From: Patellaria atrata CBS 101060
Taxonomy: Eukaryota
Assembly: GCA_010093705.1 (NCBI GenBank)
Contig: MU006109.1
Coordinates: forward strand, 1-64,000
Direction: 5' to 3'
Length of the DNA: 64,000 nt
Numbering within the stretch: position 1 is the first letter of the stretch; each line of letters begins with the position of its first letter. The position numbers and the translations under genes are program-made. Shown here piece by piece: positions 3,417 to 30,681 of the stretch. The notes below the pieces were generated by a model. That model had not been told where the DNA came from, made no database searches, and saw nothing but the letters and a program-made list of their open reading frames with translations.

Positions 3417-4813
3417 CTAAGTCCGATGGCGGCGGCACTCTTCGCACGCTCTAATATGACAACGACGACATTGTAGTATATACTTCCAATGATGGGCGTA
3501 ACATATTTCACATCTAAAACCTCTCCGTGGCGCATCAAAGATACGTTCAAATCGTCCAGGATGATTACACTCATGAGTCTCAAGAATTTCTTGTCTCATT
3601 GCCTCAACTGTACGATTTCGTTCGTGGACGGGTAATGGTTGGTGAGCCTCGCGTTGAACTAATTCATCCACACGTTCCATCAGGTTTTGCTCATCCCATC
3701 TGTCGCAAGTGCAGTTCTTCCACTCTACGCCGCAGTGATAGCAGAATTCCGCTTTGCATAAGCAACTGGTAGAAGATTAGCGACAAACGATACAACGGTT
3801 GGAAATGAGTCATACGTCATGTGGTAACAGCCGCGGTCGAGAGAGACGAGCATCCGACATTGATAGCAACGCTGCCATCCTAAATCCCTACCAAGCTGAA
3901 GCGTGGCCTGAGTGAAAACATCATCGGGACATTCACCATCGTGAACCTGTCCTTTACACTGGATACACGTTTGTGTATAGCAATGCTGGCATTCTGCAAT
4001 CTCAACTTTATACTGTTCTGGGAGAATGAATTTCCCGCATTGGTTGTTGCTGCAATAAGTCCTGTTCCCTGAAGTAAACTCAATCTTGGCTGATGTAAAC
4101 GTTTCTTTCTCTTCATCCGACATCGATCCCTCTATCGCGTCTATAGAGATTGTTTCTTTGCAGCATCTAGGCGGAAATAGGGATTGATCTTTCGTCGACC
4201 TCATGAATAGGTCTTTCAGACAGTTTCGACAATATATATGGCCACACTGAAGACGAATGATTTCCGCGAACGGATAATCTGAAACGCAGACAACACATTG
4301 ATGCGTGGTTTGGAATTTCTGTGCTTGGCGCCTTAAGTAAGGGACGGAAGGTCCTGGATTGTTTTCCTCATCATCAGACAGATCGTAACCCACGGGAAGA
4401 AAATTAGCTCCTTCGATATGACGACCGAAGGGGTATCTAGGCACATCTGCAACATATACGGGAGGTGAGTCGATTTCCTCTTGGAACTTATCGAATTGAA
4501 GCGCAAAATGCCTGTCTTGCTGAGCTTGCGTTTCTTCGTGGATAGTGATTATCTTCCCGTCTGCATCCACGGCTGATGCAATGCTATGAGCCAATATATT
4601 ATCCTTTAGAACGCATATCTGACTCTGAATCTCGGCTTGGTATAGAGTACGAGCAACCTCGAAGTCCGAGGGATCGTCGATGGCACGTTTTCCCTTTGAT
4701 TTGTGAACACTGATTTCTACTTCCTGTAGCTCAAGAGTAAGGATAGTAATACAATCATGAAGAGATGCTGGATCTATAGGTTGAGATGTGGTGGTGGTCT
4801 CCATGCCGGCCAT
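3417..4813 (-). CDS. RBR (RING-IBR-RING) E3 ubiquitin ligase, 2 exons (4813-3816, 3765-3417)
   Basis: RING1 CVVC...CGHIYCRNC, IBR TYCSNNQC...CQHC...CIQCK, RING2 WQRCYQC...GCYHMT/CLCKAEFCYHCG. A 50-bp GT-AG intron with CTAAT branch site restores the frame. Confidence 0.9.
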
Positions 4814-5179
4814 TCTGGCGTTAAGGGTGAATCTTATTCAAGGTCGGGTCTCGATTCAAATCTCCAATTTGAAAAATGTATCGTGGTCGAAAAAACTGCG
4901 AATCGAGTTTAACTAAAAAGAGAGTTAATAATGTCATTCGGCATTATGGTTTACGTCGGTTGATGGTGTGTCTCCACTTTTTTTCCAACTCTTTTGCGGT
5001 ACCTTTGACCCTTTGATACTTTTTTTATTGATAATGGCAGCGTATTTGTGTGCGTTTTAAAGTCAGGATTTTACAAAGATTGCTCTAGTAATAACTGTGG
5101 AAGTAGTACTTGACTATATTTATATATTTAATGATAATATACGGTCGCAATAATTACCTAGAAAGCTAAAAAAGATAAC

Positions 5180-6787
5180 TTACGGAGTAAGATCTATAGG
5201 GTAACGTTTACTGATAATAAGCCGACAGTCACGATCAGGATGCGTTGGAGCAAAGACAATATGACATTTAGAAGGCATAACCAGCGGGTTTCCATATTCA
5301 TCCACATTTGTCGGTGAATATATGGCGTCCTTAGGTAGAGAGAATTCGTAGTCTTTCAGTAGGTTTGCTAGGATGGTCATCATTTCAGCCCATGCCAAGT
5401 TACGACCAATACAGCTCCGAGCGCCGTAGGAGAATGCGAAGAGGTTGCGCTTGGAAGCTTCGTTATTCAAAAATCGATCCGGAAGGAATTTCTCGGGCTT
5501 TTCCCAGGTATCTGCGCGGTAATTCATTGCTATGAGGTTGAAGGCAATATCCGTCTGCGGCGGAAGATAATGACCTTGCAGGGTGATACTCTTTGTAGAC
5601 GAAAATCTGGGCATGAATCCTGAAGTTATAGGGGAGTACCTGAGCATCTCATATAGGAATGACTCGAGGAACGGGAGACTACGGCGACATTCGGCAAACG
5701 TAACGAGGTGCTCGAGAGAAAATTGGCTGCGCACCTCATCCTGAGCCCGCTTCAAATATTCCGGATATAGCGTCAATAGGTGGAGAGACCAGGTGAGCGA
5801 GGCAGATGTTGTTTCACTGCCAGCTAGTTGCATTCCAACGCTCTCAGCTTGCACTTCGACTGATGACATCTTTATCTTTGACTCTGGGTCTTCAGCGTCT
5901 ATGAATGCTTGGAGCATGTCAGCTGGCTTTTCGACAAGGTCAGTGCCAACAAGTAAGTCCTTGCGCTTAGCCACTGAGTCTCGACTGTATCGGACAAACT
6001 CATCGTATAAACGGATCCAGCGTCGAATCAACATGGAAAAGGGGAAAACTAGTAGCAAGTTAAAGTGGATCCGGACGCCAACATAGACAGCAGTGGCAGC
6101 TATCCAGTCGACGACTGTTAGGTCATTTGTAGCTAAGGAGCCACTTTCTTTACCAATTTCCCTTCCGAACGCGAGCGCACTCATTATGTCGAAGGTGGCC
6201 AGTTGAGTATCATGACGGTAATTGATTACGATAGGCTTATCACTATTCTGTTTTATCAACTTATCCCATTTCTCTTTGATCGCTAGGATGCCGTTACGAA
6301 GGATAAGTGGTTCCATTTTTGCGATGTAATTCAGGTTAAAATATGGATTGATCTGGCGGCGCCGACGGCTGGCAAGTGAAACGTCGTTGAAGGTAACAAT
6401 ATTGGCCATAACAGGGTCATTCAAACCATGGTAAACATCGATCTTCTGGAACTCGTGAGATCCTAGTACAGCTCGAACATCTTGAGGATGACTGATGCAG
6501 ACAGTATTAGGCTTAGATACGTAGATATCGCCATATGTGCGGTAGTCAGCCAGAGCAGCTGCAAAGACTCTTGCCGGAGTCCGATTAAATATTGCCCGGA
6601 GTGATGTTATACGCGCGAAAAATGGACCCCGAATGTGACGCAACGGCGAGAAGAAGTAAGCCTTAATGATTCGCCACAATAATATGAGCAAGAATATGTA
6701 CACTAAAAGTCGTGGATGTCCAATGTCGCGGACTTTTGTGTAGGCGTCGGCAAGACGGTCCAGCCAGTCGTTACTTATGATACCCAT
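5180..6787 (-). CDS. Cytochrome P450, CYP5081/HelB-like fusidane tailoring enzyme (intronless, 535 aa)
   Basis: N-terminal TM helix, I-helix AGSETT, EMLR, heme motif FSYGARSCIG. Shares [11 protein letters not shown] and C-terminal RDCRL with the two other intronless cluster P450s. Confidence 0.9.
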   Translation of the reverse strand: MGIISNDWLDRLADAYTKVRDIGHPRLLVYIFLLILLWRIIKAYFFSPLRHIRGPFFARITSLRAIFNRTPARVFAAALADYRTYGDIYVSKPNTVCISHPQDVRAVLGSHEFQKIDVYHGLNDPVMANIVTFNDVSLASRRRRQINPYFNLNYIAKMEPLILRNGILAIKEKWDKLIKQNSDKPIVINYRHDTQLATFDIMSALAFGREIGKESGSLATNDLTVVDWIAATAVYVGVRIHFNLLLVFPFSMLIRRWIRLYDEFVRYSRDSVAKRKDLLVGTDLVEKPADMLQAFIDAEDPESKIKMSSVEVQAESVGMQLAGSETTSASLTWSLHLLTLYPEYLKRAQDEVRSQFSLEHLVTFAECRRSLPFLESFLYEMLRYSPITSGFMPRFSSTKSITLQGHYLPPQTDIAFNLIAMNYRADTWEKPEKFLPDRFLNNEASKRNLFAFSYGARSCIGRNLAWAEMMTILANLLKDYEFSLPKDAIYSPTNVDEYGNPLVMPSKCHIVFAPTHPDRDCRLIISKRYPIDLTP

Positions 6788-7784
6788 CAGTGATTGTAGG
6801 TGGATTGTAGAGCAAAGGACGAAAACAAGCAGACCATATCTAGCAGTTAGGTCATAAAATCTAGTAGAACACGGTCGGTGAATATATAGCTCTGTCTAAA
6901 TTTCTACGACGAATACATATATTACCATATCTGTGCCGCGTCTAAAGCAAGTGGCATGGTTTCCTTTGCAGGAGATCGACACGATCAAGCTTATATTCGC
7001 CGCTGCAGCTAATATACCGCGAAAGTCCTTACCACCGACAGGAGGAAGTACTGTACAACCGGTTGTTGTGGGGCGTCGCCACCTGATGAAACGGCACGAA
7101 GTAACATTCTGTAGTCGGTGTAAGCTTGTACGGTCGTACAGTAGACGAGTACTGTAACAAGGGATCATCAACAGATAAGTGAAACCGTATTGTATATCAA
7201 GTTGACAACAGTGTGGGATGAGTTACGGTATGTTTGTCGCGTCCACTTGTTTCTAGTTTGTCAACGCTGGGAGCTCTATCTAATCTACCTAAGATCTCAT
7301 CTCCGGTGATTGACCGTTAACACGTAACTTCATCACCACCAGATCTCCGTTCTATAAAACACGCTCTGTAAGAGACCACCCTAATATTTCCTGGCTAACC
7401 TTGAGCTGTAGATTAGATGTCTCCTCTACTTTCTCCTTGCTCTCATCACTTCGCACATTGCGGCAGTGAAGAGCTCGATCGGCAATGGTTATGAATCTTT
7501 GGCCTTCTCAAACGGAACGTTGCATGTATAACGACAAATACTCGAGATGGTACCTCGTCGTGCGCGCACTTTGAAATGGGAACTCGAGATGGGCACCCAC
7601 CCAATGTTAGGAGTGCGTGTCAATCGTGTCGAAACAGACCTAAGAGGAATGGGATATGTCCGCAGAATATACAACAGGCATTTTTCTCACCAAAGCATGA
7701 TTTTGAAAGGTAAGTACCGTTTGAAGGCTCGATTAATCATACTTTAGATTTGAAATAGGGGAGCCTTGGTCCTTTATTCTACGC

Positions 7785-9520
7785 CTACACTTTCCGTTCG
7801 CGCTTCTTGAATAACACCTTTCCTGTTGGGTCAGTGGAAATCCCTAATCCATTTATCCTATTCTCGGGCCTCAATCCCGATTCTATCTTGACGTGGTAAT
7901 GTAATAAGATGTGGGAGAGCAGAATCTTGATCTCGTTACCGGCAAAGAATCTTCCAGGGCAAGCGTGTACGCCGTGACCAAAACTTAGCGAGTCCGGACC
8001 TGTCATGGCGAATTGATGCTTGTTTTCGGAGCCGGGGACTGCGCGCAGCTTTGCAAAGCGGAAACCGTCGAACGTTTCTGGATCATTCCAAAGTGTGCCA
8101 TCTCGCGTGACGCCCCAGGAGGGAACTGCGATGGAAGTGCCTTTTGGAAGGACGGTACCATCTGACAATGTGATATGAGACATTACTAGGCGCCTCATAG
8201 CGACTGTTTGGTAGGACTATTAGTACTGTCTCCGAAGCGAGTTATTGGGTTGTCAAACCTAGCCCTGGGGGACTCAGCCTCTGGGATTCCTTAATAAAGC
8301 TGTCGAGTTTTCGTAATTTTATCATTGATACTTTGGTCATTTTCTCTCCTGTCTCCGCTAGGACGCTCTCGATCTCTTCACACAGTGGCTCAAGATACTC
8401 TGGGTGTGCACACAGGTCGTAGAGGCAATGACACACCTTCACCATCTTATTGTTAGCCAAATATCGCACTCTGTAAGACATAATTTCTTAGCTCTTGTTG
8501 ACAGCGGTTCACATACAGTCGTACTCGTGGTATCTGAATTTCATTTAGCTTGCATTTGATTAAACAGTCACTGATTGGAGTAAATTTACGAATTGCAGCC
8601 ATGCTCAGAGTCAACTGAATATCAGCTTGCCTATCTACTGAGCTTTCTCGTGTTCCTGTCGCGTTCTCTAAGGCCCATTGAATCATATCATCTGGCCGCT
8701 TAAAGTTTGGGTCTTTCATATCCTTCACGCGTCGCTGTATGATTGGCGTCAAAAGACGCACTGCCTCAGCCCTGTGCCTTTTTATCGCTCGGGTTTCTGG
8801 GCTAAACGGAACAACAAAGGGCCGTTTCCACGCTGGGATCGATGCAAACTTCTGAGAGGCCATGAAGCTTACAATGGTGAAATTGATCGAGATTCTGATC
8901 CAATCTTCATTGCGATTCAGCGGCAAGCCAACAAACACACGACCTGATATCAATGCCACTATACGAAGAAGAGCAGGATAGAGGTAAACTGGAGTCCATT
9001 CCTCGCAGGCGCCGATGTTGCGATCAGCTGCAAATTCCATCTCATCCTGCAGTGCCTCTAGAGTTTTGCTAATGTAACGCGTTAGATCCACTTTCACGGT
9101 ACTGACCATGGTTTTACTATTATGGCCGATGCCAGTGTAACGGCCTTGAAAGAGATTGCGAATCTCCTGCTTGCTGCTCAGTTGCCATTCTGGCAGAGAT
9201 TTGATTTCATTGATGAACTTGAGCGGGATCAGGGTAAGGAGACGACCTTGGACTTGAAGCTGAAAAGGCTGATCGGGATACTGTGTTTACTTAGCGGCGG
9301 TTTACCTAATACATTGAAGAACTTTGAGTACCTTTTCGTACCCAGCCTTGACCACAGGTCGAAAGTCTGAAGACCCTTCGGGAAGAGTCATAATGGGTAG
9401 ATCCAGCAGCTTCTTTTGCCATGGAATGAAGCTTTTTCCAAGATAAAGAACAACCAGGATTGAGAATACAACCAAGATTACTGGAGAGGACATAAATGGA
9501 AAAAACATGACCCTATCCAT
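7785..9520 (-). CDS. Cytochrome P450 of a different clan (CYP68/CYP512/ent-kaurene-oxidase-like), 5 exons: 9520-9332, 9280-8590, 8533-8517, 8436-8259, 8203-7785 (~497 aa)
   Basis: Manual splicing at GT-AG sites gives an open 1494-nt CDS. It has I-helix MAAIHTTS, KLDSFIKESQR, PETFDGFRF and heme motif FGHGVHACPGRFFA. Confidence 0.88.
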
Positions 9521-10309
9521 AATTTTGATATTCTTTATAGAGATCTTGGTGATAAATTTCGAAATTGATGTCGAAGAAGAGAGCAATTTGAACCCGTCTT
9601 TACTATCTTACAACTTACAAGACAAAAATATAAGTTAACTTTTCTACTCGGAACATACCTAGACGAGGTGCAAACGGTAAATACATTCATATAGTGGAAG
9701 GGGAGAGCTGATTTCTATATGCGGTAGGTTACATTTTGTTGCAGAATATTCCATTCGCCAATGCAAGAGGGACAGGGTCCCCTGGGGATGATTACGTCGG
9801 ACGGCCCTAGTTTAGAATTTCCTCCTTTCCGGAAAGCAAAAGCTCTCTAATTGCTTAGCTCTCTATCCACTTATACTTTGTGCAGGTAAGAGTTCATAAT
9901 TGACGATCTATCTCCATCAGCGGGACAAATTTGTGTACAGAGCTAGCCGAGAATTTTAAGTTACTTGCAGGGCTCATGTTAATGTTGAGGTCGTCCATTA
10001 CCCTTGAACAAACTTTTTTCGGAGCATAAATTAACAAATCAGAATTCTCGCCGTCTCCACTGTGGGCTACTGTCGAAATGCTTGAACGATGCTTGAAAGA
10101 CGGATAGATGGAGACCTTGTGGCGTGGAGTATTTGGATCGAAGCTACCGGGACGTAGATAACGGAAGCATTCAATGGAAATACGATATGAACTGTTATGA
10201 ACCGGGTAGATCTAAGCAAATTTGGCGTAAAAGCTTCTTCGGTTAAAGGTTGGAACCTATATCGAAACCGTGACCATTAGCAGCCTTCCCGCCAACAACT
10301 ACATCAAAA
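9521..10309. promoter_or_regulatory. Putative bidirectional promoter between the accessory P450 and the extended SDR
   Basis: Head-to-head genes about 790 bp apart. Confidence 0.5.
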
Positions 10310-11523
10310 ATGGTAGCAGCGAAGAATCAGATGTCTCAGCCAAGTAACAACGATGTTCTAGTAATTACAGGAATCAACGGTTACATAGCAAGTGTTCTCG
10401 GCTACGCACTCCTCAAGAAAGGATATCATATACGTGGTACCGTAAGAAGCTTGGAAAAGGCGAAACCGTTGCTTGAAGGAGTCTATGCCCCGTATAAAGA
10501 CCGCGTGCAGATCTATCAGGTGCCAGATATCACAGCAGATGGGGCCTTTGACGAGGTTGTAAAAGGTGAGAAGTGAATCCAGTATGGAAACTTACTGCTT
10601 GGAACAAGAAGTTTTGAGCATGTAGATTAACCATTGTTCTACCTATATGGAAGAGTTCTTGACTCACATAACATCTTGTAGGTGCCCATGGGATTTTTCA
10701 TATTGCTTCCCCTGTCGGTATGTCACTCAAAACGTATGACGAAGCCATCAAACCTGCAATTCGCGGCTCTACTGGTATCCTTTCCTCTACCTTAGCCCAC
10801 GCCGGTCCTCAGCTAAGGGCAGTCGTCGTAACCTCTTCGATCGCTTCCCTCTTTTCTGGCCGGCCAGGACCGGGAGAAATCATTACTGAAGCATCTCGAC
10901 CAAACCTCGACCTGTTAACTCTACGCGTTCGGCTCGAAGCGGGTGAGATCAAAGCACCAGTTTATGCCCTCTCAAAGATTGCCGCCGATGTCGCTGTCTG
11001 GAAGTGGTATGAAACGAAGAAGCCCCCATTTTCCTTATGCTCTATTCACCCGTCCTTGGTAATTGGGCCACCTGTAACTATCCCCTGCTCCGGTGACGCA
11101 CTCTGTGAGACGCTTCACCCACTGTGGGAGATATTTTCCGGAAAATCCTTGACGCGACTTCCGACTTTGGGTAGTGGCCTTTACGTCGACATCCGTGATG
11201 TGGTTGATATGCATTGCTTTGGATATGAGCATCCCGAAGTTGTTGATGGGCATAGGTTCATCGCTTCCGGTGGATTCGGACCGGCTCAAGCTATCGCGGA
11301 TATTTTGCACGCGGCGTATCCTATGCGAGAGGGAAAGATGCCGAAAGGGAAACCGGGGGAGGGTTATATTGGTTTTCAGGATGGAAAGGTAGGAAAGGTT
11401 CAACCGATAGAAGGTGCCGTAACAATCAGTAGCAAAAAAGCAGAGAAAATGATGGGAATTAATTGGGTTGACTTTAGGGATAGTGTAAGAGATACCGCCA
11501 AAGCTCTTGAAGTTCTCCTATAA
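10310..11523 (+). CDS. Extended SDR / NAD(P)-dependent epimerase-dehydratase (aldehyde reductase II/Gre2-like), 2 exons (10310-10565, 10682-11523; ~365 aa); candidate 3-ketoreductase
   Basis: TGINGYIA Rossmann motif, GIFHIASP after splicing, VVVTSS catalytic Ser, YALSK (YxxxK), YVDIRDV. Confidence 0.87.
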
Positions 11524-11876
11524 AACCTTTCCCTCTGCTAGCACAAGTGTTTTATTAATAGGAGTCACTTAGCATAGAGAGTTTCTTCGGTTACAAAAGA
11601 CAATTGGGTTCCAAGTTTGTGCATTATGTACAGTTCAAGTGTTCTACGACTTTGCCGCATTCGGACCATCCTTTCGTCTATTCTAGATCCCTTGAGTAGA
11701 CCTTCGCTGCCATCGAAAAACATGACTAAATCCAAGAAAGTATTTTAGAGATGAAGAACCAAATAAATGAGTTGAATATATATCACATGTCCAAGTATTT
11801 TCCATTGACATGGTATAGCTTCCATCGCATACATAAACAAGTTCTTCAGGGAAGTTGAAACCCCTTTAAGTGGTAT

Positions 11877-13334
11877 TTAGTAAACAAGTTTGGTAAAAGC
11901 ACGAAGTTGGACATTTTTGAGCAATGAAGTCATGACATTTGGTCTTAAGGTAAGAAAGACATAAACATCGTTTTGCTGGGATGCTGAGGGCATGATCACC
12001 GCAACCGTGTTGGAGTATGCCATAGGAACAACGAAAGCAGGTCGACCGAATCCAAAATCAACATCGTAAAAGGAGAGCCGTGACTGATTGGAGAATGCTT
12101 GACAAACGATCATAGAGTAGAGTACATTGGCCTTACGACCAACCAAATTGATGACTCTCAGTGCCCGGCGTATGAATTGCTCTACTGTCTTCTTGTCCAC
12201 ACAATCCACAGTTTCTCTGGAGATGGACGCAACTTGCGCGAGCGATTTTAGAGTGATTGAACTGAGGAGAGCGTCTCGCGGAGCCGTAACATACAGCCCG
12301 ATTGCGCAATTGCCGGCATAATGGTCAGGCATACCGATTCGACGGCGAAAGTCGCAAGGAACAATAGCACTTGCACTTTTACTACCAGAACCAAATAACT
12401 TCTTTGCAGTTTTGGCAAGAAGACTGGCTTTTGAATCTACCTCAGCACTTACCTTCTCAGTACTTTGGGAAAATGCCATGAGGAATAGTGCGGTGATGAC
12501 GTCGTTGTCTGAAACACGAAGACCATCTGGTCGAAGTCGAAATGCCTCTTCGCGTACATCGCTGAGTGTAGATCGTGGAATACGGAACATGTGACTCTCT
12601 ATGTAATCTGGTGCAGATTGTTTGGTAGAGAATAGAACATAGAGCCTCAGCAGCAGCCGTATTAACAGTGATAGAAGGACCGAGAGCCAAGTACGAGGGT
12701 CCACCGGGTTTCTATTAGGCCTAACGTCTTTCGGGAGGTATTCGTACATGACTCTACGATCGAGGATCGGTTCCACTACCATGTTAGGCATGCCTTGTCC
12801 AAGGCTTTCACGGCAATGCTCAGCCCAACAATTCATAAACGCGACGCAACCTTTCGCATCAAAAACGCTATGCGAGATACGTACTACTATGACCACGCCG
12901 CTATTCTCAGCTAGCCGGTGGACACGTACGTGAATAAGCTTTAAGACTCCCCGATAGTCCACCTGTGAGCGTGGATCGCGAATATTCATTCCCTTCGGCC
13001 ATTGTTCGCGATGAAATTGCGCCTGTTTGATGTCTTGGAAATAGACATTCTCATTCAACTCCTCATAGACGGGCATGTTCGGGTTGTTGCGGTCGACAAC
13101 AACACTCATTGCGTTCAAACCCTCCTGCGACAAAATTCCGACAAGAATTGGAAACTTTTGCAGCGCGTGATAAAATGATGTGCTGAGAGCTTCACCGGTC
13201 ATGAATGGTGGACATTTCGCTGACGGCTCGTTCTCAAAAAAGTACGCATTGGTGATATACAAATGGCTCGGAATGATGTCCAGCGGTGAAAGCATGTATC
13301 TCTTACTACTTAGGCTGCGTAAAAAATCCTCCAT
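11877..13334 (-). CDS. BAHD/transferase-family O-acetyltransferase (HelD2/FusD-like; intronless, ~485 aa)
   Basis: HSVFD (HxxxD) and DFGFG motifs. First ATG at 13334 (the ORF track starts at a TTG). Adjacent to the cyclase. Confidence 0.88.
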   Translation of the reverse strand: MEDFLRSLSSKRYMLSPLDIIPSHLYITNAYFFENEPSAKCPPFMTGEALSTSFYHALQKFPILVGILSQEGLNAMSVVVDRNNPNMPVYEELNENVYFQDIKQAQFHREQWPKGMNIRDPRSQVDYRGVLKLIHVRVHRLAENSGVVIVVRISHSVFDAKGCVAFMNCWAEHCRESLGQGMPNMVVEPILDRRVMYEYLPKDVRPNRNPVDPRTWLSVLLSLLIRLLLRLYVLFSTKQSAPDYIESHMFRIPRSTLSDVREEAFRLRPDGLRVSDNDVITALFLMAFSQSTEKVSAEVDSKASLLAKTAKKLFGSGSKSASAIVPCDFRRRIGMPDHYAGNCAIGLYVTAPRDALLSSITLKSLAQVASISRETVDCVDKKTVEQFIRRALRVINLVGRKANVLYSMIVCQAFSNQSRLSFYDVDFGFGRPAFVVPMAYSNTVAVIMPSASQQNDVYVFLTLRPNVMTSLLKNVQLRAFTKLVY

Positions 13335-13967
13335 GTTTTCGGACAATCTGAAAATGAAATGAGTGAGAAATTGGAGAACTGAAGTCGGCTATTCAGAGAT
13401 ACTGTAAGTGGTCTAAGTATTTCATATTTCCGATCATGTGATACGTATGGTAAGGAACGCATTAAACGTCGAGGTCGAGCATGGCCAAAAGTTAAGGCTA
13501 CAGCTCCATTAGCGGGATGTCAAGGTTTGGAAGCTCGGTCAGAATAAATAACAGTTGTACTAGTACTGTTTAGCTGACAAGGTATTTCGGGCGATATGAT
13601 TGTGTAATAGCTTACTAACTGGAAGGGAAAGTTTCGCGTAGCACCTTCTACAGCCTAGGTATCACAAAGCTAACACATTGGATGGAACCGCAATGTAGTT
13701 GATTGCCCACGGGATATGTGGGACCGCTTTCATCGAATAGATTTATTCTGGAACGATGATTGCAATGTATACAAATCTACGCGAATTCCAAACTCTGACT
13801 GCTTTAGATGTGTATGTATCCCATGAAAACTACACTGTTGAAAGCGTCGGCAACTTCGACAGCGACAACACAACCGAAGACAGTAGGAATGAAAGAATGA
13901 CCCGCAGGTTATAAGAAAGGAATGCAGATCGGTTAGAGAACTCTGGGTATAGAAAGCCATTTTTGGC

Positions 13968-16163
13968 TCAGTAGAGAAGCTGCTCGTTACCATACAGCTT
14001 TGCGAAACGCCCAAGAGCCGAAAGGGTAAAGTGAAACTTGTAATTAGGATATCGCATGCCGCCTGGAGGAGCAAACACTCCCTCAAGTGCACCAGGTAAC
14101 CAATCACCAGTTTGCTGCTGCTGTTCCATGAGGTACGCTATACCACGCTTTATGGCCATATGGTTGGTGCAGTTTGCCGCCATCAGACCGATGACGGCAT
14201 AAGAGGTATTTGTGACTTGACTACCAGCTGGATCTTGCACATATTGCTTCGTCCTTGCACTTTCGAGGGACTCCCCCCAACCGCCATCCGGGTTTTGATG
14301 ACTGAGTAGAAAGTTGCAGGCACTTTTGCACGCAACAGAGATTCTCTCAGAAACGTCAACACTCGCCAGTCCTTGTAGTGCAAACATTGTAGCATATGTG
14401 AAGCAGACACCCCAACTTGCAAACCAGCCGCCATTCGGGTACTGCGCGCTTAAAAGGTAGTTTACGCAGCGGTCAATACAGTTTTGAATATCATTAGTGC
14501 GATAGTCGGGGTACGCCTTGGCAAATGTCGTCAGACTTGTCATGACCGAACCGGTACACTCGGGATATAGTTGGTCTGTCATGACGTTCTCATATAATTC
14601 CGTAATATTCATGAGCTCTAGGCATAGGGGTCCACGAATCGGCTCATACGCGGAATATCCTCCGCCATTATTTTCCATCTTCAAGACAAGGTCAACCGCT
14701 TGTTTGAGCCGCTCGTCCGAGATCAGTTTGGGAACAAGTTGTGCTTGCTGAAGAAGAACAACAACCTTCACTGCTTCAGCTGTAGTGTCGGAGACGACGT
14801 ATGACTGATCACGCGTACTGAAAGGCCAGCCGCCCTTAGTAGCTTGCCTATAAACCCGGTTTAGACCGAGGGGGTTCTCGCGGATCTGCGTGTTGTCGAT
14901 GAATTCAAGTGCAGTTCGTAGAATTTCGCTGTTTTCTGGGTGAATCGCTATTTCTGAATCGATTGTGGCCTGGAGTGTGAATACGGTATCCCAAAGTGAT
15001 GTACCATTAGTACCTGATGCTGCCAGACCTTCGCGGCACATCCACATTGGATCAATGATACGCTCGCGCATGCCGCGAACCCAATGGCTGTCAGGACCGT
15101 GGGCGTGAAACATGGCAAGCATGTTAGATGCGAAGCTCACAGGTGCAATACACAAGTAGTTCGTATTGCGTACCTCGGCTTCGATCTGGAACAGAGCTTC
15201 CTCAAGTGCCCATCGACGCAGAAAAGGTAGCCTCAATCGTTCATGTATCTGAAGCATAGTTGCAACAGTACGCTGGGTAAATGTAATTGGTGCGAGGCGA
15301 TCAAATTTGCTGATATTGTTCCGTTGAGCAGGCCAGTCAATATGTTCGTAGGGTCGGTCGTAAAGTTCCCGGCGTAAGTCTCTTGTCAGATCGTTAAGTT
15401 GCATTACGAATTTATGACCATAGAAATAGCTCATGCTGATGAAAACGTTACGAGTGTGAACCCACCATTGACCTGGACTTAATGGTAACATGCTTGGTGT
15501 AAGCAACAGCTCTGGAGGTAGTGGAGTCATACCATCCCACTCGTATACTCCAAGAACGCATAGCCAGAATTTCCCCCATGTAGGAGTTGTCAGTATACCG
15601 CCCATTCTGGTCAGAGCACTGCGTGCCTTAGTCAGTACTGAATGCTTGGGTGACACTCCTAATATGCGTAGTGTGATGTAATTCATGACTGTACCAAAAA
15701 CTGTAGATGGACTTTGAATGAATAAGCCCCAGCCACCATCTTCATTAGAGACGTTCATCAGGTAACGACACATCTCTCTTCTCATGTGAGGTTCGAATGA
15801 ATTTCCCATGATAAAGTTGACAATGACAATTGCGCTCGTTACAAAGAGAGGACCGTCGTCGTTACATCCCCAATGACCATCTTGTGCCTGTAGACGTTTG
15901 AAGAATTCCCATCCGTTCTCAATAGCCTGCAATGGTCGTTGGGCCCGCGGAAGCGTAGGCATTTCAAAGGGTAAACCAAGCCAATATTTCTCGAGGAAGC
16001 TCTGAGGCTCTTCCGAGGCCTCGTCATCAGACAAATAGGTCCACATATGACGTCCATTCTCAACCCTGAGCCGCCAACGCGTAAGATCAGTTTTATACTC
16101 TCTCGCCTCCGTGGTATCAGAGAAATCGGCTCGGCCAATCGTGGAACCGTCACCTTTTATCAT
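13968..16163 (-). CDS. helA: Oxidosqualene cyclase, protostadienol synthase type (intronless, ~731 aa)
   Basis: QW repeats (QAQDGHW, QYPNGGW, QNPDGGW, QQQTGDW). Catalytic DTTAE (14775-14789) instead of DCTAE. C-terminal GVFAPPGGMRYPNY (14052-14072), the protostadienol synthase signature of HelA/AfuOSC3. First ATG at 16163. Confidence 0.93.
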   Translation of the reverse strand: MIKGDGSTIGRADFSDTTEAREYKTDLTRWRLRVENGRHMWTYLSDDEASEEPQSFLEKYWLGLPFEMPTLPRAQRPLQAIENGWEFFKRLQAQDGHWGCNDDGPLFVTSAIVIVNFIMGNSFEPHMRREMCRYLMNVSNEDGGWGLFIQSPSTVFGTVMNYITLRILGVSPKHSVLTKARSALTRMGGILTTPTWGKFWLCVLGVYEWDGMTPLPPELLLTPSMLPLSPGQWWVHTRNVFISMSYFYGHKFVMQLNDLTRDLRRELYDRPYEHIDWPAQRNNISKFDRLAPITFTQRTVATMLQIHERLRLPFLRRWALEEALFQIEAEVRNTNYLCIAPVSFASNMLAMFHAHGPDSHWVRGMRERIIDPMWMCREGLAASGTNGTSLWDTVFTLQATIDSEIAIHPENSEILRTALEFIDNTQIRENPLGLNRVYRQATKGGWPFSTRDQSYVVSDTTAEAVKVVVLLQQAQLVPKLISDERLKQAVDLVLKMENNGGGYSAYEPIRGPLCLELMNITELYENVMTDQLYPECTGSVMTSLTTFAKAYPDYRTNDIQNCIDRCVNYLLSAQYPNGGWFASWGVCFTYATMFALQGLASVDVSERISVACKSACNFLLSHQNPDGGWGESLESARTKQYVQDPAGSQVTNTSYAVIGLMAANCTNHMAIKRGIAYLMEQQQQTGDWLPGALEGVFAPPGGMRYPNYKFHFTLSALGRFAKLYGNEQLLY

Positions 16164-16660
16164 GGTCGTGATGTGATGACTCCAGTCGTTGAGATGCAAC
16201 AGAGGTAAAGGCGGCGTAGAAGAATCTACTAAATTGATATTACCGTGAGTATTAAGATGAAGGATGCGAGTAGTGATATCTTTGTACAGATAGAGGGTTA
16301 GAGGAGGATTATAGTACTGAAATGGACGACTCTAAACTTGAAAAGTAGCTATCCAGTTTAGGAATCCACCTACCCTAACATCGAATGAGATATATCATTT
16401 AGTCATCTAATGAATGAGAGCAAATGTATTTGATAGTACTAATACCACGTTTTACGCTCGGGCACGGCGCATCAGATAGAGCCGAATGAAGCATGTCAGC
16501 CTACTGATACATGGTATATCCGCCGCTATATATGTGTCCTCGAATTTCTCGCGAACCCTCGTCATACTTTTGCTATTTGATTTTATCTTTTCCGTATCGG
16601 CTTTCCCCGCCCTTATTTTCCCACTTCGTACTTTTCAAGCTCATCCGAGTATAACGTATT
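16164..16660. promoter_or_regulatory. Putative bidirectional promoter between the cyclase and the SDR
   Basis: Head-to-head genes about 500 bp apart. No specific binding site identified. Confidence 0.5.
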
Positions 16661-17440
16661 ATGCTCTCTTCCGTCAAGACTGCCATCATAACGGGCTCTG
16701 CTCAGGGCGTTGGATTTTGTATAGCTAAGGATTTAGCTAAGCGTGGATACAAGGTGGTCATCAGCGACATTGACACAGAGAAGGGATCGCAAGCTGCCAC
16801 AGAGGTCAACAAAAACCATGGTGATGGAACGGCGGTCTTCATTCCTTGCGATCTCACGCGCACCGAGGACATTGACAATTTGTTGAACAGTACGGTTGAG
16901 AAATTAGGCGGTTTTTCGGTATTGGTTAACAACGCTGGATTTTTACGGGCACCATTCTTAGCGATCTCTCCCAAGGATATTCAGGATACGATTGGAATTA
17001 ATCTTACTGCACCCATATACGCGACACAACAATGCATCAAATTGTGGAACGAGAATCCGGAACAGAATGGGCAGGTGGTCACAGTTACATCGTCATCTTC
17101 GTTTAAGACGTATGCTAGTATCTCAGCATACGGTGCTGCAAAAGCTGGTGCTGCACAGTTTACGTTCGCATCGCGCGCATTTGGACCCAGAATTCGCATC
17201 AACGCAGTTGCTCCCACCGCTATAGCGACCAATTTCGAGAACAACAAGATGCGTGTTCAAACGGACAAGGTGGGAGCGGGTTACACTCCTGAACCTGAAA
17301 TGCGGGCCATGGGTCTTAACAGGTTACAACCCGAGGATGTTGCCAACGGAGTTGTTCGGTGCATTGAGGATGATTCGATGTATGGCCAGGTCCTTTATCT
17401 TGATGCAATTGAGGGAATGAAGATCCACAGCAGCTTTTAG
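16661..17440 (+). CDS. helC: Classical short-chain dehydrogenase/reductase (HelC-like C3 dehydrogenase/C4 decarboxylase; intronless, 259 aa)
   Basis: TGSAQGVG, NNAG, catalytic Ser, YGAAK and INAVAP motifs. The helC assignment rests on context next to the protostadienol synthase. Confidence 0.8.
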   Translation: MLSSVKTAIITGSAQGVGFCIAKDLAKRGYKVVISDIDTEKGSQAATEVNKNHGDGTAVFIPCDLTRTEDIDNLLNSTVEKLGGFSVLVNNAGFLRAPFLAISPKDIQDTIGINLTAPIYATQQCIKLWNENPEQNGQVVTVTSSSSFKTYASISAYGAAKAGAAQFTFASRAFGPRIRINAVAPTAIATNFENNKMRVQTDKVGAGYTPEPEMRAMGLNRLQPEDVANGVVRCIEDDSMYGQVLYLDAIEGMKIHSSF

Positions 17441-18243
17441 TCCAGGATGTGGACACATATGGAGACACATATGGAGACACAGGATTGAGACATGATGGAA
17501 CGCAATCTTCGCTTTTCAGTGAGGGGTCGTATGTCATAAAACCAGAAAAAGAAGGTGTCATCCGTCTGGCAGAGTGAAGTGGCAAGTTCTGATATGAATT
17601 TTCGATCGCTAATAGTAGGTAGAAAGTAGATTAACTTGAAGATTTTGGAAAATGGATGTTGAGGTTGTGATAAGATTCTACTATGCTTTCCCCCATTGTG
17701 ACTAGTTCCAATCTCTTCTTTTTCAGCCGTGTACATATCAACCGACAAAATGCACCGTTGCTCTCAAGGTAACATAACTAGAGCTATTTCAATGCAATGC
17801 AGGCTATCTTACTCCCCTCGCTTTCCCTTGACTATTGCAGCTTGATTTCATTACCTATAGCAACTCTTTGCAAGGGTAAAGAGGCGAATTCAAGGTTGCA
17901 ATATCCGGTTAAGAAGACAGTGCTGTGAGATGTTCTCAAATACTCTCTAATCAATGAGATGAGATTCATAGGCATTGATATCATATAGTCAGCGGTACAA
18001 ATACATAGAATGTAAGTAAACGGTATGGTCATATTGGTCAGTTATTAGAACACACAACGATGACTGCGGCCTTGCGAACTCTTGATCCGACACAGAAGTT
18101 TCCTCACAACAATACAATTACGTGTGAACCCCCACAAGCGCAGTGATTGAGACGAGAGCCTAACTATAGAAAGAAGAATATATCGTAAGTTTTCCTATTT
18201 GCAATTCCGTGGATCTCAGCCAACCTTTACAGCGCAATCCACA

Positions 18244-19824
18244 ATGGTGGCCCTTGATGTCGACTGGTTTAACATCTTGACCGAAACTTATTCCTCTCTC
18301 AGAGACTTCGGCATCGCACGCCTTCTCACGATAATCATTGGAGTGTTGTTGGCTTTCCGCCTCGTTCATGCCTTCTTTCTCTCACCATTACGCAATGTCC
18401 CTGGGCCACTAGTTGCTCGTCTGACAGCGAAGCGCGGTGATTTGGACAACTTCTCTGGCAGAGTGGCCCAGAATGTACAGGCCGATTATGAGCGATACGG
18501 TGATATCTATGTGTACAAACCAAATGCTGTATGCATCAGTCACCCTGATGATATACGGGCTGTGTTGGGGTCACAATCGCAAGAGTTTCGGAAGGCCAAG
18601 TTTTTTGATATCTTTGACGATGGTGGTACCCCCAACATTGTGTCTCTGAGGGAACCGGAACTTGTCAGTCGTCGACGTCGTCAAATTGGTCCATTCTTCA
18701 ATTATAGCTATCTAGACAAAATGGAAAACATCATCTTGAGCAGAGGATACGAAGCCATGAAGGCGAAGTGGGATAAACTAGTCCACGACAATGACGGTCA
18801 ACCAACAGAGGTCAATTATCGTATCGACACTCAGCTAGTCACGTTTGATATCATGAGTGCCCTAGCCTTCGGTCGCGAGTTCAATTCCATAGCCAAAGGC
18901 AGTTCATCCATTACCAAGTGGACAGGAACTATAATGTCTCTTCTGGATTCCCCTTTCGTTCTCGGCCTATTATCACTACTTCCCTTCTCGCTCGTTATGC
19001 GCCCTTGGAAATATATGTATCGCGATCTTGCTGTATACAGCAAAGAGTCCATAGCCCAACGGAAAGCTGTCCTTGCTAGTAGGAGCGCAAAAAAACCTGT
19101 CGACATATTACAAGCCTTTATTGACGCAGAAGATCCTGAGTCCAAAGCGAAGATGACTCCACCGGAAGTACAAGCGGAAAGCATAATGATGATGCTCGCG
19201 GGAAGTGAAACCACTTCGTCTGCTATCATGTGGTCGTTCCATTTGCTACTACTATATCCTAAAATCCTTCAACGCGCGGTTGCCGAGGTTCGTAGTGTGT
19301 TCCCTCTAGAGCATCTTATCACTTACAAGGAAGTGCGTGATCACTTGCCTTATGTCGAAGCTTGTGTTTATGAAGCACTACGTCAATCACCTACCACGGC
19401 TGGATTGACACCACGTATCTCTTACAGTAGGGGTATATCTATACAAGGCCACTATATTCCACCAAACACTGAAATCTACGTTAACCTACGGTCTCCCAAC
19501 ATGCATAATAGTCTTTGGGAGGATCCGAATCGATTCAATCCGGAACGTTTTCTCAACGATACTGCTAAGCATGCGTTGTTTACATTCTCATACGGTCCTC
19601 GCATCTGCATCGGCCGAAATCTTGCCTGGGTCGAGATGCTAACAATTATTGCCAACACCCTCAAGGATTACGACATAGCATTACCTGAAAATAGCCTATT
19701 TAATCCAGAAAATGTTGATGCTCAAGGTCTTCCGAAGCTATTACCTTGTCGGTGTTTCATTGCATCTTTCCCAGAAAATCCAGACCGCGACTGTCGTCTA
19801 TTGATTACCAAGCGTACCGAATGA
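18244..19824 (+). CDS. Cytochrome P450, CYP5081/HelB-like (intronless, ~526 aa)
   Basis: TM helix, PLRNVPGP, AGSETT, EALR, PERF, FSYGPRICIG. First ATG at 18244. Confidence 0.9.
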   Translation: MVALDVDWFNILTETYSSLRDFGIARLLTIIIGVLLAFRLVHAFFLSPLRNVPGPLVARLTAKRGDLDNFSGRVAQNVQADYERYGDIYVYKPNAVCISHPDDIRAVLGSQSQEFRKAKFFDIFDDGGTPNIVSLREPELVSRRRRQIGPFFNYSYLDKMENIILSRGYEAMKAKWDKLVHDNDGQPTEVNYRIDTQLVTFDIMSALAFGREFNSIAKGSSSITKWTGTIMSLLDSPFVLGLLSLLPFSLVMRPWKYMYRDLAVYSKESIAQRKAVLASRSAKKPVDILQAFIDAEDPESKAKMTPPEVQAESIMMMLAGSETTSSAIMWSFHLLLLYPKILQRAVAEVRSVFPLEHLITYKEVRDHLPYVEACVYEALRQSPTTAGLTPRISYSRGISIQGHYIPPNTEIYVNLRSPNMHNSLWEDPNRFNPERFLNDTAKHALFTFSYGPRICIGRNLAWVEMLTIIANTLKDYDIALPENSLFNPENVDAQGLPKLLPCRCFIASFPENPDRDCRLLITKRTE

Positions 19825-20487
19825 GTTCCAAGTAAACTTATCTCCAACCTTTGCAGATTCATGAACAACTGACAGTTCCGAAAGTGCACCTTAAGTAATG
19901 TTAGGAGGATATAAGGTAGAGTTGAATATCATGATCTGATAGTGAGCTAGATTTTGGTGTCAAGGGTTAGAATACTTCAGTGTTCGTTATAAGAACCTTC
20001 ATCTTTAGTCGCATTGAGCTCATAATTTCGTTTTGAATAATATAATACCGCTATAGGTAATAACGCAATACCGAGGCGTTCTGACGCTGAATAAAACAGG
20101 GCGCATATGCAGGTCAAAGTCTAAGCTTGATATGCAACAACTTCCACTCTACGAGGCTGGTACAACATTTCCTTATGTAGAAATCCCCTCGAGTATCTAC
20201 CATTATATGGTGTAGAGAGTTTTTGTAATATATCTAAGCTATCCCTTTGTTTTCTTTCTTTCATTCTAAATGGTATGTAATTTTCCCCCAAACCTGGTAG
20301 TCTATGTTCTTCCATCAATTCCTTATAAGATTTCCACAACTCTATATCGACGCAATCCAATAAGTGGTAAAATGAAAAATATACTTCCGATTGTGTGATA
20401 AACTTTCAGCATTCAAGTTCCAAATTCTATTAATATCTTTATCTTTCAACTTCGTTGATCTCCAGAAAGAATTCATTATTCCAAAAA

Positions 20488-22074
20488 ATGTCGACCCCAA
20501 GCATCAATCTAGACATTTATTTTACCAAGGTCCACCATCTTATTCAAGAGTTTGGGTACATCAAATTTTTCATATCCTTGGTTTGCCTGCGGTTGATTTG
20601 GTGTATCACATACGAACTATTACTTTCTCCGTTGCGTAATATACCAGGCTCGCTTCTCGCACGTCTCTCCGCAAAACATTCGATCCTCAAACGTGTATTT
20701 GGTAATGGACCGAAATTAGTTCAGGCCGACTACGAAGCATATGGTGACATATATGTTCATAAGCCTAACGGCGTGAGCATCAGCGACCCAAAGGATATAC
20801 GAGCGATACTCGGCTCGCAAGAGTTTAGGAAGACGGCAATCTATAAGACGCTCGACATTCTCGAGAGACCTAGCGTCTTTACAAATACGGATCCCTTGCA
20901 GGCCAGTCGAAGGCGCCGACAGATAAATCCGTATCTGAATCATGGGTACTTGGGTCGGATGGAACCAACGATAATCCGTTACAGTATCATTGCAATCAAA
21001 GCGAAATGGGAAAGACTTCTCCAACAGAGTAGTAGTGAATCTGTAATTATCAACTACCGAAACGATACGCAGTACGCTACTTTTGATACCATTGGTGCAC
21101 TAGCATTTGGAAGAGAATTTAATTCACTCGTCAACGACGATCCCTTAATTATAAGGTGGATCGAGGCTACTGGTCTTTATCTAGGCCTAACTAAGAATTT
21201 CTCTATACTTAATATTTACCCCTTCTCGCTGCTAATTTCTCGGCACAAGAAGCTGTTTGAAGAATTTATCAACTATAGTAAAGAGTCGGTAAATCAACGT
21301 AAGGAGGCACTTGCTCGTAAGGGTAGTGGTGAAGTTCAAGAAGAGAAACCCATCGACTTATTGCAAGCTTTTATCGATGCTGAAGACCCAGAGTCAAAAA
21401 TTAAGATGAATCATCACGAGGTCCAGACGGAAAGTATAGCCATGCAGCTGGCGGGCAGCGAGTCAACGTCCTTTGTGACATCCTGGGTTATCCACCTACT
21501 TACCCTCTATCCACAGCATTTGAACCTAGCGGTTCAAGAGGCCCGTCAATTCCCATCTGACCAGCTTATTTGCTTTCGTCACCGAACGGAGCTACCTTAT
21601 TTGGAAGCCTGCATCTACGAGACATTACGCTATTCACCAATCACATCGGGATTCATGCCCAGGGTCTCCCACAGCAAAGGGATTAATATTCAGGGATATT
21701 ACATCCCAAGCGGTGTGGAGGTCGCGATAAATTTGATCGGTGTCCACGCAAATCCTAAGATATGGAGATCTCCACACCTCTTCGACCCAAGCCGTTTTCT
21801 TGAGGATGAAGAAGCTAAAAGGAACGTTTTTGCTTTCTCTTACGGGCACCGCAACTGTATCGGCCGGAATCTTGCCTGGGTCGAGATGCTGATTATCATT
21901 GCTAACATCCTCAAAGACTTTGATATCAGTCTCCCAGAGGATAGTGTTTACGGGCCACATAACGTAGACGAGCTTGGACGTCCTAGGATCATGGCCACGA
22001 GAAGCTCACTATTCACGACACCCAAGTACCCGGAACGCGACTGTCGTTTAGTTATTAAAAAACGCGCAGTGTAG
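20488..22074 (+). CDS. Cytochrome P450, CYP5081/HelB-like (intronless, ~528 aa)
   Basis: [34 protein letters not shown]. First ATG at 20488. Confidence 0.9.
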
Positions 22075-23566
22075 ATACTTCGTAGGATTCCTTTTAGTGC
22101 TGTAGTTTTGTCAGATCACGCTAGCTTGCAGAATTTACTCAATTCAGCTGTCAATGGTCACCCTCGCTCATAGGTCGAAGAAAACTCCAGGCTGGTGGAT
22201 CCTATATATAACTAATTCTCCATGTGTACATGAACCTGTACTAGCCAGGGGATTTTCATTGGTCGTAATTAGTGTGTCAAGTCCAGTGAAGGGGTAGTGA
22301 CAGATGTAAAAGTCATTATAACTTGAGCTTAGTACAGTGTTCTGAGTTAACGGGATTGTTCTAGATGGTGCGAAACTGGTGTTGTACCCTGCATGTATTA
22401 AGAGTATACGCTCCTTTCATGTGAAAACCATCAAGAGGCAGCTTCATACCATATTGCGATCATCCTACTGATTATTGACTTTTTCTTCCTTTTTTTCGTG
22501 TCCCGGCTCCCGTTGCCACGTTGCACACCACCCTTTGCCGCTCCACGCTATAACACGATATTTCTCTCTGCGTTCTTTCCATACTTGGCCGACGGTGATT
22601 GAGTCCCTAATGATCTCTATCCGACCAGACGACCATCGGTGGCGATGTCGACGATAGTAATCGTAGTGAGTTCGGATTCAGAAACTTAGCACAGTGCGAC
22701 AGTATGGTAAGGGTACCTGGCTTGCGAGGTTCGAGATGATTGTAAGCTCATTACTGTCAATGGTCAACTCAATCCTATCGCGCCCTTACGGTGGTAAGAC
22801 CAATGTTAACCTAGATTCTCGTGAAGTGAATGACACTCCGGTACCTAGCTATGTTAGCTCCTTTGCTCTCAGATTGACTTGGCTGAGATATCGGATGGAG
22901 TGGAAGGCGATGATTCTAGGATCCTAGATAGGTATATCTCTCATCTACGGGAGCATCTGGCTTGAGAAAGTCACCGGATACGGATCGCGCATACCTTGCG
23001 AAGGACAACAGCATATAGGAGGTGCTTACGGCCGTGAAATCGGTTCAAACGGACTATCGGTGTCTTCTACACAAAGTAGTCTTCGAAGAAAATCCATCTT
23101 TAGCATGAAACTTTACAGAATTTGATAGGAGGTTTGGCGATATAAGTACGGCTCGTTGTCTCTTCTGCCGCAACCGTAGTCTACTGTTAATGAGATTCCG
23201 TCGCCACCCACGGAGTATCTTCAGCAATACTTTGCACTTCCCAACTACATCAGCGGACGAGCATAACATGTTGCTATGTCTCACCACGTTTTGCTTTACC
23301 GGTCCTCGAGCACCGAAGGCGTCCTCCGCAGGGTAACTGACAAGCGCAAACAGTGAGGAAAGTAAAGTCCAATGCAGCTCGTCATTTAGCTCTGACGTAT
23401 CCTTTGTTCACTCAAGAACCGTAACCTCGCCGTATTTCTGCCCCACAATCTGCACGGTTCACTTGCACATATCTTCAGTCAGTGTGAAAAGCACTCTCGT
23501 TGTGGCCATTTTCCGCAGTCTGAACACTTTCCACGTACCAACAATGGTCGACTCCAATGCCACAGA

Positions 23567-30312: not shown

Positions 30313-30681
30313 GGTAGGATGGATTGATGATGTATACCCATAAGAGTATACTGATTCATACTGGCTCACAAAAAAATTGAGAGGGTTGAGGAGCATAAAT
30401 ACAAAGAGGTAATGGGACCTGGTGGACTTGTGGGAAAGAGGAACGTAGGCCTAAATGAGTAATGGTCCAACAGGAAGAAGAGGGCGGGGGTTCTCGAGAG
30501 GTAGTAGAGATTCTATCATGATACCCACACAATTATGCGTTCTGCGGCTCTTGATTCGTTCTTTTCGACATATAAAGCTTCCTACTTCCTGACTTGATCC
30601 AGTAGTTTAGTACTGTACATGCGTCTACATTCGCATGAAGTTGTCCTTCGATGCTTCTTCAGGTCATCTAGATATGATGTT

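Follow-up and report, generated by a model that had tools for sequence, protein, structure and literature searches.

A predicted eight-gene fusidane cluster of the fusidic acid type in Patellaria atrata CBS 101060

We analyzed the first 64,000 nucleotides of contig MU006109.1 of Patellaria atrata CBS 101060 (the window), in which positions 5180-22074 carry a compact group of triterpenoid biosynthesis genes. The group was found to comprise eight intact genes, encoding one oxidosqualene cyclase (OSC), four cytochromes P450, one PF02458 acyltransferase, one classical short-chain dehydrogenase/reductase (SDR), and one extended SDR. Its sequence marks the group as an intact fus-type fusidane cluster of eight genes, and as a new example of a characterized pathway. 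The most likely product is fusidic acid, an assignment that we hold with moderate confidence. A preliminary description of the window had read the genes as a fusidane cluster of the fusidic acid type, and this reading was supported when the cyclase, the CYP5081 P450s, the genes expected to be absent, and the additional P450-SDR pair were each tested at the sequence level.

The fus cluster itself is made up of eight genes, six of them forming the core, together with fusB1, which encodes an 11alpha-hydroxylase, and fusC1, which encodes an NADPH-preferring enzyme converting the 3-ketone to a 3alpha-hydroxyl group (Cao 2019, PMC6437595). In the helvolic acid (hel) pathway, HelB1 is responsible for C-4 oxidation, HelB2 for 16-hydroxylation, HelD2 for 16-O-acetylation, HelB4 for conversion of C-21 to the acid, HelC for oxidative decarboxylation, HelB3 for C-6/C-7 oxidation, and HelE for delta-1 dehydrogenation (Lv 2017, PMC5696383).

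Table 1. The eight genes of the predicted P. atrata fusidane cluster, with positions in the window
Gene and predicted or candidate role	Position	Strand	Model and motifs
P450a, CYP5081 HelB2/FusB2-type, predicted C-16 beta-hydroxylase	5180..6787	-	intronless, 535 aa; haem motif FSYGARSCIG
P450b, non-CYP5081, candidate FusB1 counterpart (C-11 alpha-hydroxylase)	7785..9520	-	5 exons, 500 aa; haem motif FGHGVHACPG
Extended (GRE2-like) SDR, candidate FusC1 counterpart (NADPH-dependent 3-ketoreductase)	10310..11523	+	2 exons, 365 aa; TGINGYIA, YALSK
PF02458 (BAHD-like) acyltransferase, candidate HelD2/FusD counterpart (16-O-acetyltransferase)	11877..13334	-	intronless as read, 485 aa; HSVFD, DFGFG
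OSC, protostadienol-synthase (HelA/FusA) type	13968..16163	-	intronless, 731 aa; DTTAE
Classical SDR, candidate HelC/FusC2 counterpart (3-beta-OH dehydrogenase triggering C-4 decarboxylation)	16661..17440	+	intronless, 259 aa; TGSAQGVG, NNAG, YGAAK
P450c, CYP5081 HelB1/FusB4-type, predicted C-4 beta-methyl oxidase	18244..19824	+	intronless, 526 aa
P450d, CYP5081 HelB4/FusB3-type, predicted C-21 oxidase to carboxylic acid	20488..22074	+	intronless, 528 aa from first ATG

Open reading frames (ORFs) were taken from stop to stop and subsequently scanned with Pfam, and the ATG-started frames of Table 1 were derived separately. The p450 domain was identified in ORFs 5180-6895(-) (E 1.2e-59), 18151-19824(+) (E 3.9e-67), and 20434-22074(+) (E 1.6e-68), and its C-terminal part in ORF 7785-8216(-) (E 1.9e-22). 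Transferase PF02458 was found in ORF 11877-13388(-) (E 1e-23), SQHop_cyclase_N/C in ORF 13968-16331(-) (E 5.7e-49 and 5.9e-53), and adh_short in ORF 16655-17440(+) (E 5e-44). The extended SDR gave weak Pfam scores only, with exon 1 hitting Epimerase/GDP_Man_Dehyd and exon 2 hitting NAD_binding_4.

The two spliced genes, those of P450b and the extended SDR, were modeled by hand from the DNA. The exons of P450b were placed on the minus strand at 9520-9332, 9280-8590, 8533-8517, 8445-8259, and 8203-7785, separated by GT-AG introns of 51, 56, 71, and 55 nt; in this hand model the 17-nt micro-exon 8533-8517 bears the I-helix. The extended SDR has exons at 10310-10565 and 10682-11523, and its frame is open. 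None of the eight coding sequences contains an internal stop, and the catalytic motifs are intact, the P450s having the haem Cys motif and ExxR, the classical SDR TGxxxGxG, NNAG, and YxxxK, the extended SDR TGxxGxxA and YxxxK, the transferase HxxxD and DFGFG, and the cyclase DTTAE. The meaning of these motifs is family knowledge. All of the genes listed in the preliminary description (an OSC, four P450s, two SDRs, and an acetyltransferase, with open frames) were recovered.

Four of the six intronless translations, that of the classical SDR among them, have exact entries in the public protein collection, each a singleton at 90% identity, and the 485-aa acyltransferase translation has no exact entry there. 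An annotated protein of P. atrata CBS 101060 (P0242, 488 aa) matched the P450b model at 99.4% identity over 491 columns and was 100% identical to exon 2. This public model is 488 aa as against 500 aa here; it starts later and differs by 3 residues. For P450d the annotation gives 517 aa compared to 528 aa here, and the protein P0124 from the same strain was identical to P450d at 508 of 508 residues. Two sequencing runs were found to match the stretch; both are contigs that contain it in full, identical and with its introns, and they are probably the source of this DNA and not a record of expression.

The cyclase was compared with the best 120 of 1089 proteins retrieved at E up to 1e-50. Within this set it showed 73% identity to a Joint Genome Institute (JGI) "protostadienol synthase" and 70% to each of an Aspergillus fumigatus cluster of 132 members, the A. 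lucknowensis "helA" product, and a protein of Calcarisporiella thermophila. Identity to the Nannizzia gypsea "Protostadienol synthase A" was 62%, and the proteins named lanosterol synthase among the matches listed were 43-47% identical to it. A FastTree phylogeny was then made with 116 of the 120 rows, P0058, P0061, and P0064 having been dropped as long or fused and P0069 as a plant protein. The window OSC fell inside a 44-row clade of support 100 together with helA, PdsA, and Metarhizium proteins, with the ERG7/lanosterol synthases across the tree, and its sister was the JGI protein (support 97). Residues 459-463 (~14775-14789) read DTTAE, as opposed to DCTAE, DCTSE, or DCTGE in those lanosterol synthases that were checked. 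The longer SDTTAE was common to the window OSC and four other HelA-type proteins, a simple pattern search being blank in 4 of the 14 proteins checked. The preliminary description had called this enzyme an OSC of the protostadienol-synthase type, and a placement with lanosterol synthases was looked for and not found. We assign the window cyclase to the protostadienol-synthase (HelA) clade and not to the lanosterol-synthase type.

A profile of the three intronless P450s was used to collect 164 proteins at E up to 1e-60, and a tree was made of the best 120, all rows being kept. Groups were labeled according to the source names of the A. lucknowensis, A. fumigatus, Microsporum canis, and Arthroderma proteins they contain. 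Four groups, each with support of 100, were obtained: the HelB1 group (23 rows), which holds P450c; the HelB2 group (28 rows), which holds P450a; the HelB4 group (27 rows), which holds P450d; and the HelB3 group (8 rows), in which none of the three window CYP5081 P450s was placed. The identities followed the same pattern. P450a was 65% identical to the HelB2 proteins of both A. fumigatus and A. lucknowensis and 57.5% to the Waltergamsia fusidioides P450 A0A411G455. For P450c, identity was 70% with the HelB1 protein of A. lucknowensis, 68% with that of Arthroderma, and 44-54% with other paralogues, and P450d was 69% identical to A. lucknowensis HelB4 (a partial sequence) and 63% to M. canis HelB4. 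Identities across paralogues were 42-56% for the three window proteins. With tree groups and reciprocal identities in agreement, P450a, P450c, and P450d are assigned as one-to-one orthologues of HelB2, HelB1, and HelB4, as had been proposed from the sequence alone.

The absence of certain genes is equally part of the fus pattern reported for the window, as the preliminary description had noted neither a second acetyltransferase nor a 3-ketosteroid dehydrogenase. The flanks were scanned with Pfam using 66 ORFs of at least 75 aa in 1-5200 and 22000-38500, and ORFs of at least 180 aa were scanned out to 64000. In these scans we found no second acyltransferase of the HelD1/CepD2 type, no KstD-type FAD enzyme such as HelE, and no further P450; nor did the cluster or its scanned flanks contain a transporter or pathway regulator. 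The cluster is therefore taken to consist of the eight genes of Table 1.

The acyltransferase is the sole PF02458 gene in the scanned window, retains HxxxD and DFGFG, and adjoins the OSC gene; an Atlas look-up of it returned PF02458 clusters only. In the fus cluster, fusD is listed beside fusA in Table 1 of Cao 2019 (PMC6437595), and FusD and HelD2 are only 37% identical (Cao 2019, PMC6437595). The classical SDR, an adh_short protein with TGxxxGxG, NNAG, and YxxxK intact, also adjoins the OSC gene. On the grounds of family, motifs, and position, we consider these two proteins candidates for the HelD2/FusD and HelC/FusC2 roles, respectively.

The remaining two genes, which encode P450b and the extended SDR, lie side by side with 790 bp between them and are transcribed divergently. 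A search among longer proteins with P450b exon 2 as the query gave 17 matches. Full-length identities of P450b were 67% to the JGI protein P0243, 58.7% to a protein of Arthroderma sp. PD_2, and 56.5% to one of M. canis, and proteins of other fungi among the 17 were below 50%. The nearest named relatives of P450b are thus dermatophyte P450s, at 57-59%. The M. canis relative of P450b and the M. canis "helB4" protein have the same longest contig value, 511,338. FusB1 has as its closest homologue the N. gypsea protein MGYG_08623 (78%), which adjoins MGYG_08624, a FusC1-like protein (63%) (Cao 2019, PMC6437595). Core proteins of the fus and hel pathways share function at 37-65% identity (Cao 2019, PMC6437595), and the 57-59% identity of P450b therefore lies within a range over which function is kept.

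The extended SDR was typed as GRE2-like by a search of the PDB (E ~1e-19), the top matches including GRE2 4pvc and 5gmo/5ywl at E ~1e-18 to 1e-19. The residues that follow its glycine-rich loop resemble what we take to be the NADPH-type signature of the GRE2/DFR group. FusC1 is termed an "extended" SDR and FusC2 a "classical" one (Cao 2019, PMC6437595), and in the text layout of Fig. S6, from which the branching is uncertain, FusC1 is grouped with 5GMO and 4PVC among extended SDRs (Cao 2019, PMC6437595). The window protein belongs by these comparisons to the same GRE2-like subfamily as FusC1 and is a candidate counterpart of it at the subfamily level. The adjacency also has a parallel, since fusC1 is listed beside fusB1 and MGYG_08624 and MGYG_08623 are consecutive locus numbers (Cao 2019 Table 1, PMC6437595). 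The preliminary description had held that the extra P450 and extra SDR are those of the fusidic acid pathway. This stood insofar as the two genes are of FusB1-like and FusC1-like kinds and adjacent; the correspondence with FusB1 is by way of dermatophyte proxies, and that with FusC1 is at the level of the subfamily.

A pathway to fusidic acid can be proposed from these assignments. The OSC would convert 2,3-oxidosqualene to protosta-17(20)Z,24-dien-3beta-ol, after which the HelB1-type P450c would oxidize the C-4 beta methyl group, the HelB2-type P450a would hydroxylate C-16, the acyltransferase would acetylate the 16-hydroxyl, and the HelB4-type P450d would take C-21 to the acid. Dehydrogenation of the 3beta-hydroxyl by the classical SDR would lead to decarboxylation and to the common 3-keto 29-nor fusidane intermediate. 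P450b would then add the 11alpha-hydroxyl and the extended SDR would reduce the 3-ketone to the 3alpha-hydroxyl, in either order, to yield fusidic acid or a very close congener. For P450b the regiochemistry, and for the extended SDR the stereochemistry, are inferred from the relatives of the two proteins and from their adjacency, and production itself is a prediction.

Several observations weigh against fusidic acid as the product. FusB1, FusC1, MGYG_08623, and MGYG_08624 were all absent from the matches of the P450b and SDR searches, leaving the link to FusB1 to run through dermatophyte proxies, and the regiochemistry of a P450 may shift at ~57% identity. The search with the extended SDR covered the full library and gave 1914 matches at E up to 0.001, with names looked up for 20 of the best 33. 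Among those 20, the best relative was at 63%, and the next, at 44-46%, were from fungi that are not known to make fusidanes (Xylogone, Cladophialophora, and lichen fungi). Eight representatives were named to organism (Xylogone, Cladophialophora, Phylliscum, Piccolia, Karstenula, Clonostachys, Cercophora, and Apodospora), and the eight included no known fusidane host, whether a dermatophyte, W. fusidioides, or Hapsidospora. By both trees and identities, the core genes of the window were nearer to the Aspergillus hel lineage and the JGI fungus than to the W. fusidioides/dermatophyte lineage, and therefore the tailoring pair may have a history other than that of the fus cluster. Within the HelB2 group, a separate subclade apart from P450a was made up of the proteins of W. 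fusidioides and the dermatophytes, and the dermatophyte proteins likewise stood apart in the OSC tree. The overall gene order also differs from that of fus.

It is possible, if doubtful, that the same six-gene core operates with a tailoring pair that acts differently, P450b oxidizing for example C-6, C-7, or C-12 and the SDR acting with other stereochemistry or on another ketone, to give an undescribed fusidane. Natural fusidanes are oxygenated at C-6, C-7, C-11, or C-12 (PMC3901436), and tailoring enzymes of these pathways change activity with substrate (Song 2020, PMC8245791). The identity of P450b to the dermatophyte proteins (57-59%), the 0 of 8 named SDR relatives from fusidane hosts, and a core lineage that is hel-like and not fus-like all point in the same direction, but the dermatophyte P450s are nonetheless the nearest named relatives of P450b, the SDR shares the GRE2-like subfamily of FusC1, and the adjacency of the two genes matches both fusB1/fusC1 and MGYG_08623/MGYG_08624. 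An evolutionary form of this alternative, which we put forward tentatively, is that the cluster is a natural hybrid of an Aspergillus-like hel core and a P450/extended-SDR pair, the SDR having been recruited independently of FusC1, and that it would make an undescribed fusidane differing in the hydroxylation site or the C-3 stereochemistry. If so, fusidane tailoring modules have been swapped between core lineages.

Other readings appear less probable still. Were P450b and the extended SDR unrelated neighbors of six cooperating core genes, or were the cluster silent, at most the common 3-keto intermediate would be formed, or nothing at all under normal conditions. The want of a pathway regulator or transporter could be taken in this sense, although a regulator is likewise missing from the gene tables of hel and fus (Lv 2017, PMC5696383; Cao 2019, PMC6437595). 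The genes of P450b and the extended SDR are enclosed by the cluster, with the HelB2-type P450 gene on one side and the acyltransferase gene on the other, and all eight frames and their motifs are intact, and we consider this explanation improbable. It is very improbable that the cyclase gives a skeleton other than protostadienol and thereby a non-fusidane triterpenoid. The 44-row OSC clade does include a divergent 21-row subclade with no assigned product, but the window OSC lies outside it, in a polytomy in which it is closest, by path, to the JGI protein and the Aspergillus helA group, and its gene stands beside one-to-one orthologues of HelB1, HelB2, and HelB4. Fusidic acid accordingly remains the product that we favor.

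Patellaria atrata is a wood saprobe of the Dothideomycetes, order Patellariales. Among the papers listed in our literature search, none linked it to fusidanes in general, to fusidic or helvolic acid, or to protostadienol; the listed publications naming the species are, to judge by title and the opening of the abstract, taxonomy, phylogeny, comparative genomics surveys, and plant-health lists. The papers that mention fusidanes together with Dothideomycetes were a P450 classification and a review. The producers of fusidic acid given in a review are Acremonium/Fusidium, Calcarisporium, Cephalosporium, Epidermophyton, Gabarnaudia, Mucor ramannianus, and Paecilomyces, the Epidermophyton being the dermatophyte E. 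floccosum (PMC3901436). P. atrata is outside this producer list and any paper found, in keeping with the earlier suggestion of a lineage not known as a producer. Among Dothideomycetes, the same review records helvolic acid from Alternaria and cephalosporin P1 and viridominic acids from Cladosporium (PMC3901436), and fusidanes are therefore not new to this class. As far as our searches reach, no fus-type cluster has been published from the Patellariales, the supplements of other genome papers lying outside the literature searched.

If the assignment to fusidic acid is right, this Dothideomycete saprobe is a taxonomically distant candidate producer, the list in the review being one of Hypocreales-type molds, a dermatophyte, and Mucor (PMC3901436). 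The window would also supply a second, diverged tailoring set, consisting of a candidate 11-hydroxylase and a candidate 3-ketoreductase, for combinatorial work, which has already been carried out with hel, fus, and cep (cephalosporin P1) genes (Song 2020, PMC8245791). That a hel-like core occurs together with fus-like tailoring genes is relevant to the divergence of the three fusidane pathways. The P. atrata cluster does not open a new mechanism or class.

The distribution of relatives was uneven. In the trees, proteins of the Dothideomycetes Pseudovirgaria and Lepidopterella were not the nearest relatives of the window proteins, and those of Calcarisporiella, of the Mucoromycota, were among the nearest; the spread of the fusidane core is therefore patchy. 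In Calcarisporiella thermophila, the OSC locus 4066 lies between loci 4065 (HelB4-type) and 4067 (HelB1-type), with a HelB3-side P450 at 4070, all at ~70% to the window proteins. The Kickxellomycotina (Martensiomyces, Coemansia, Linderina, and Dipsacomyces) show a large separate expansion, with 34 CYP5081-like P450s among the 120 listed. The rows concerned in the P450 and OSC trees are P0010, P0125, P0128, P0148, and P0202-P0241. A first scan of metagenomes for related clusters returned no relative, and a second, made with an alignment of 14 OSC sequences, gave three loci (L001-L003) at only 38-39% identity.

Outside the cluster, the nearest neighbors are an RBR-type RING/IBR gene at 3725-4837 and a beta-helix/GH43 region from ~27 kb. 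The flanking ORFs 23396-24049 and 24489-25418 were considered as cluster genes and rejected, having no Pfam match and appearing non-coding. Composition gave no signal of recent transfer, the GC content of third codon positions (GC3) being 0.45-0.50 in the cluster genes and 0.42-0.55 in their neighbors. Positions 1-3400, ~1.8 kb to the left of the cluster and beyond the RING/IBR gene, are AT-rich (GC 0.31-0.39) with indices like those of repeat-induced point mutation: TpA/ApT was 1.25-1.38 and (CpA+TpG)/(ApC+GpT) 0.58-0.75, with the remainder of the window at 0.69-0.91 and 1.04-1.18. No ORF in 1-3400 matched Pfam in the flank scan. Farther right, at 36174-36910 (-), a HET domain is split across two adjacent ORFs in different frames, where an intron or frameshift is possible. 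A housekeeping-type block at 38365-51435 encodes bestrophin, an M16 mitochondrial processing peptidase (39763-41484), an FHA/RING protein, a CAF17/IBA57-like protein (45302-46603), DCP2 (48933-49604), and a DUF4112 protein; the labels MAS2, DCP2, and IBA57 given earlier to genes in this area fit the Pfam domains found. At the right end of the window, at 61555-62349 (+) and 62709-63917 (-), a polyprenyl synthetase (PF00348, E 1.7e-54) lies beside a ketopantoate-reductase-family gene. This pair is ~40 kb from the cluster and was not counted in it.

Compared to known systems, the window has the six-gene core in common with the hel cluster of A. fumigatus, whose OSC (70%) and HelB1, HelB2, and HelB4 (65-70%) are the closest named core relatives among the matches listed. 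Unlike hel, it is without a HelB3-group P450 and, in the ORFs scanned, without HelD1 and HelE, and instead carries a non-CYP5081 P450 and an extended SDR. The cep cluster of Acremonium/Hapsidospora chrysogenum has the same core and an extra SDR, CepC2, with the function of FusC1 (Song 2020, PMC8245791). It requires in addition CepB4, which hydroxylates both C-6 and C-7, and CepD2, a second acetyltransferase (Song 2020, PMC8245791), whereas a single PF02458 gene was found in the parts of the window that were scanned. The preliminary description was incomplete in its summary of what hel and cep need, in that HelB3, CepB4, and CepC2 were left out (Lv 2017, PMC5696383; Song 2020, PMC8245791).

The dermatophyte locus (N. 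gypsea MGYG_08623-08626, with relatives in Microsporum and Arthroderma) is where the named proteins nearest to P450b (57-59%) are found, and like the window has HelB1-, HelB2-, and HelB4-type P450s and a protostadienol synthase. Its core proteins are 58-68% identical to those of the window and belong to a different subclade. The fus cluster of Acremonium (now Waltergamsia) fusidioides ATCC 14700 (MK044769) has the same inventory as the window, including three CYP5081 P450s and one other P450. Its host belongs to the Sordariomycetes and that of the window to the Dothideomycetes, and the identity of P450a is 57.5% with the HelB2-type P450 of W. fusidioides versus 65% with Aspergillus HelB2. The two clusters nevertheless have three adjacencies in common, those of the acyltransferase with the OSC, of the extended SDR with the odd P450, and of the HelB4-type with the HelB1-type P450.

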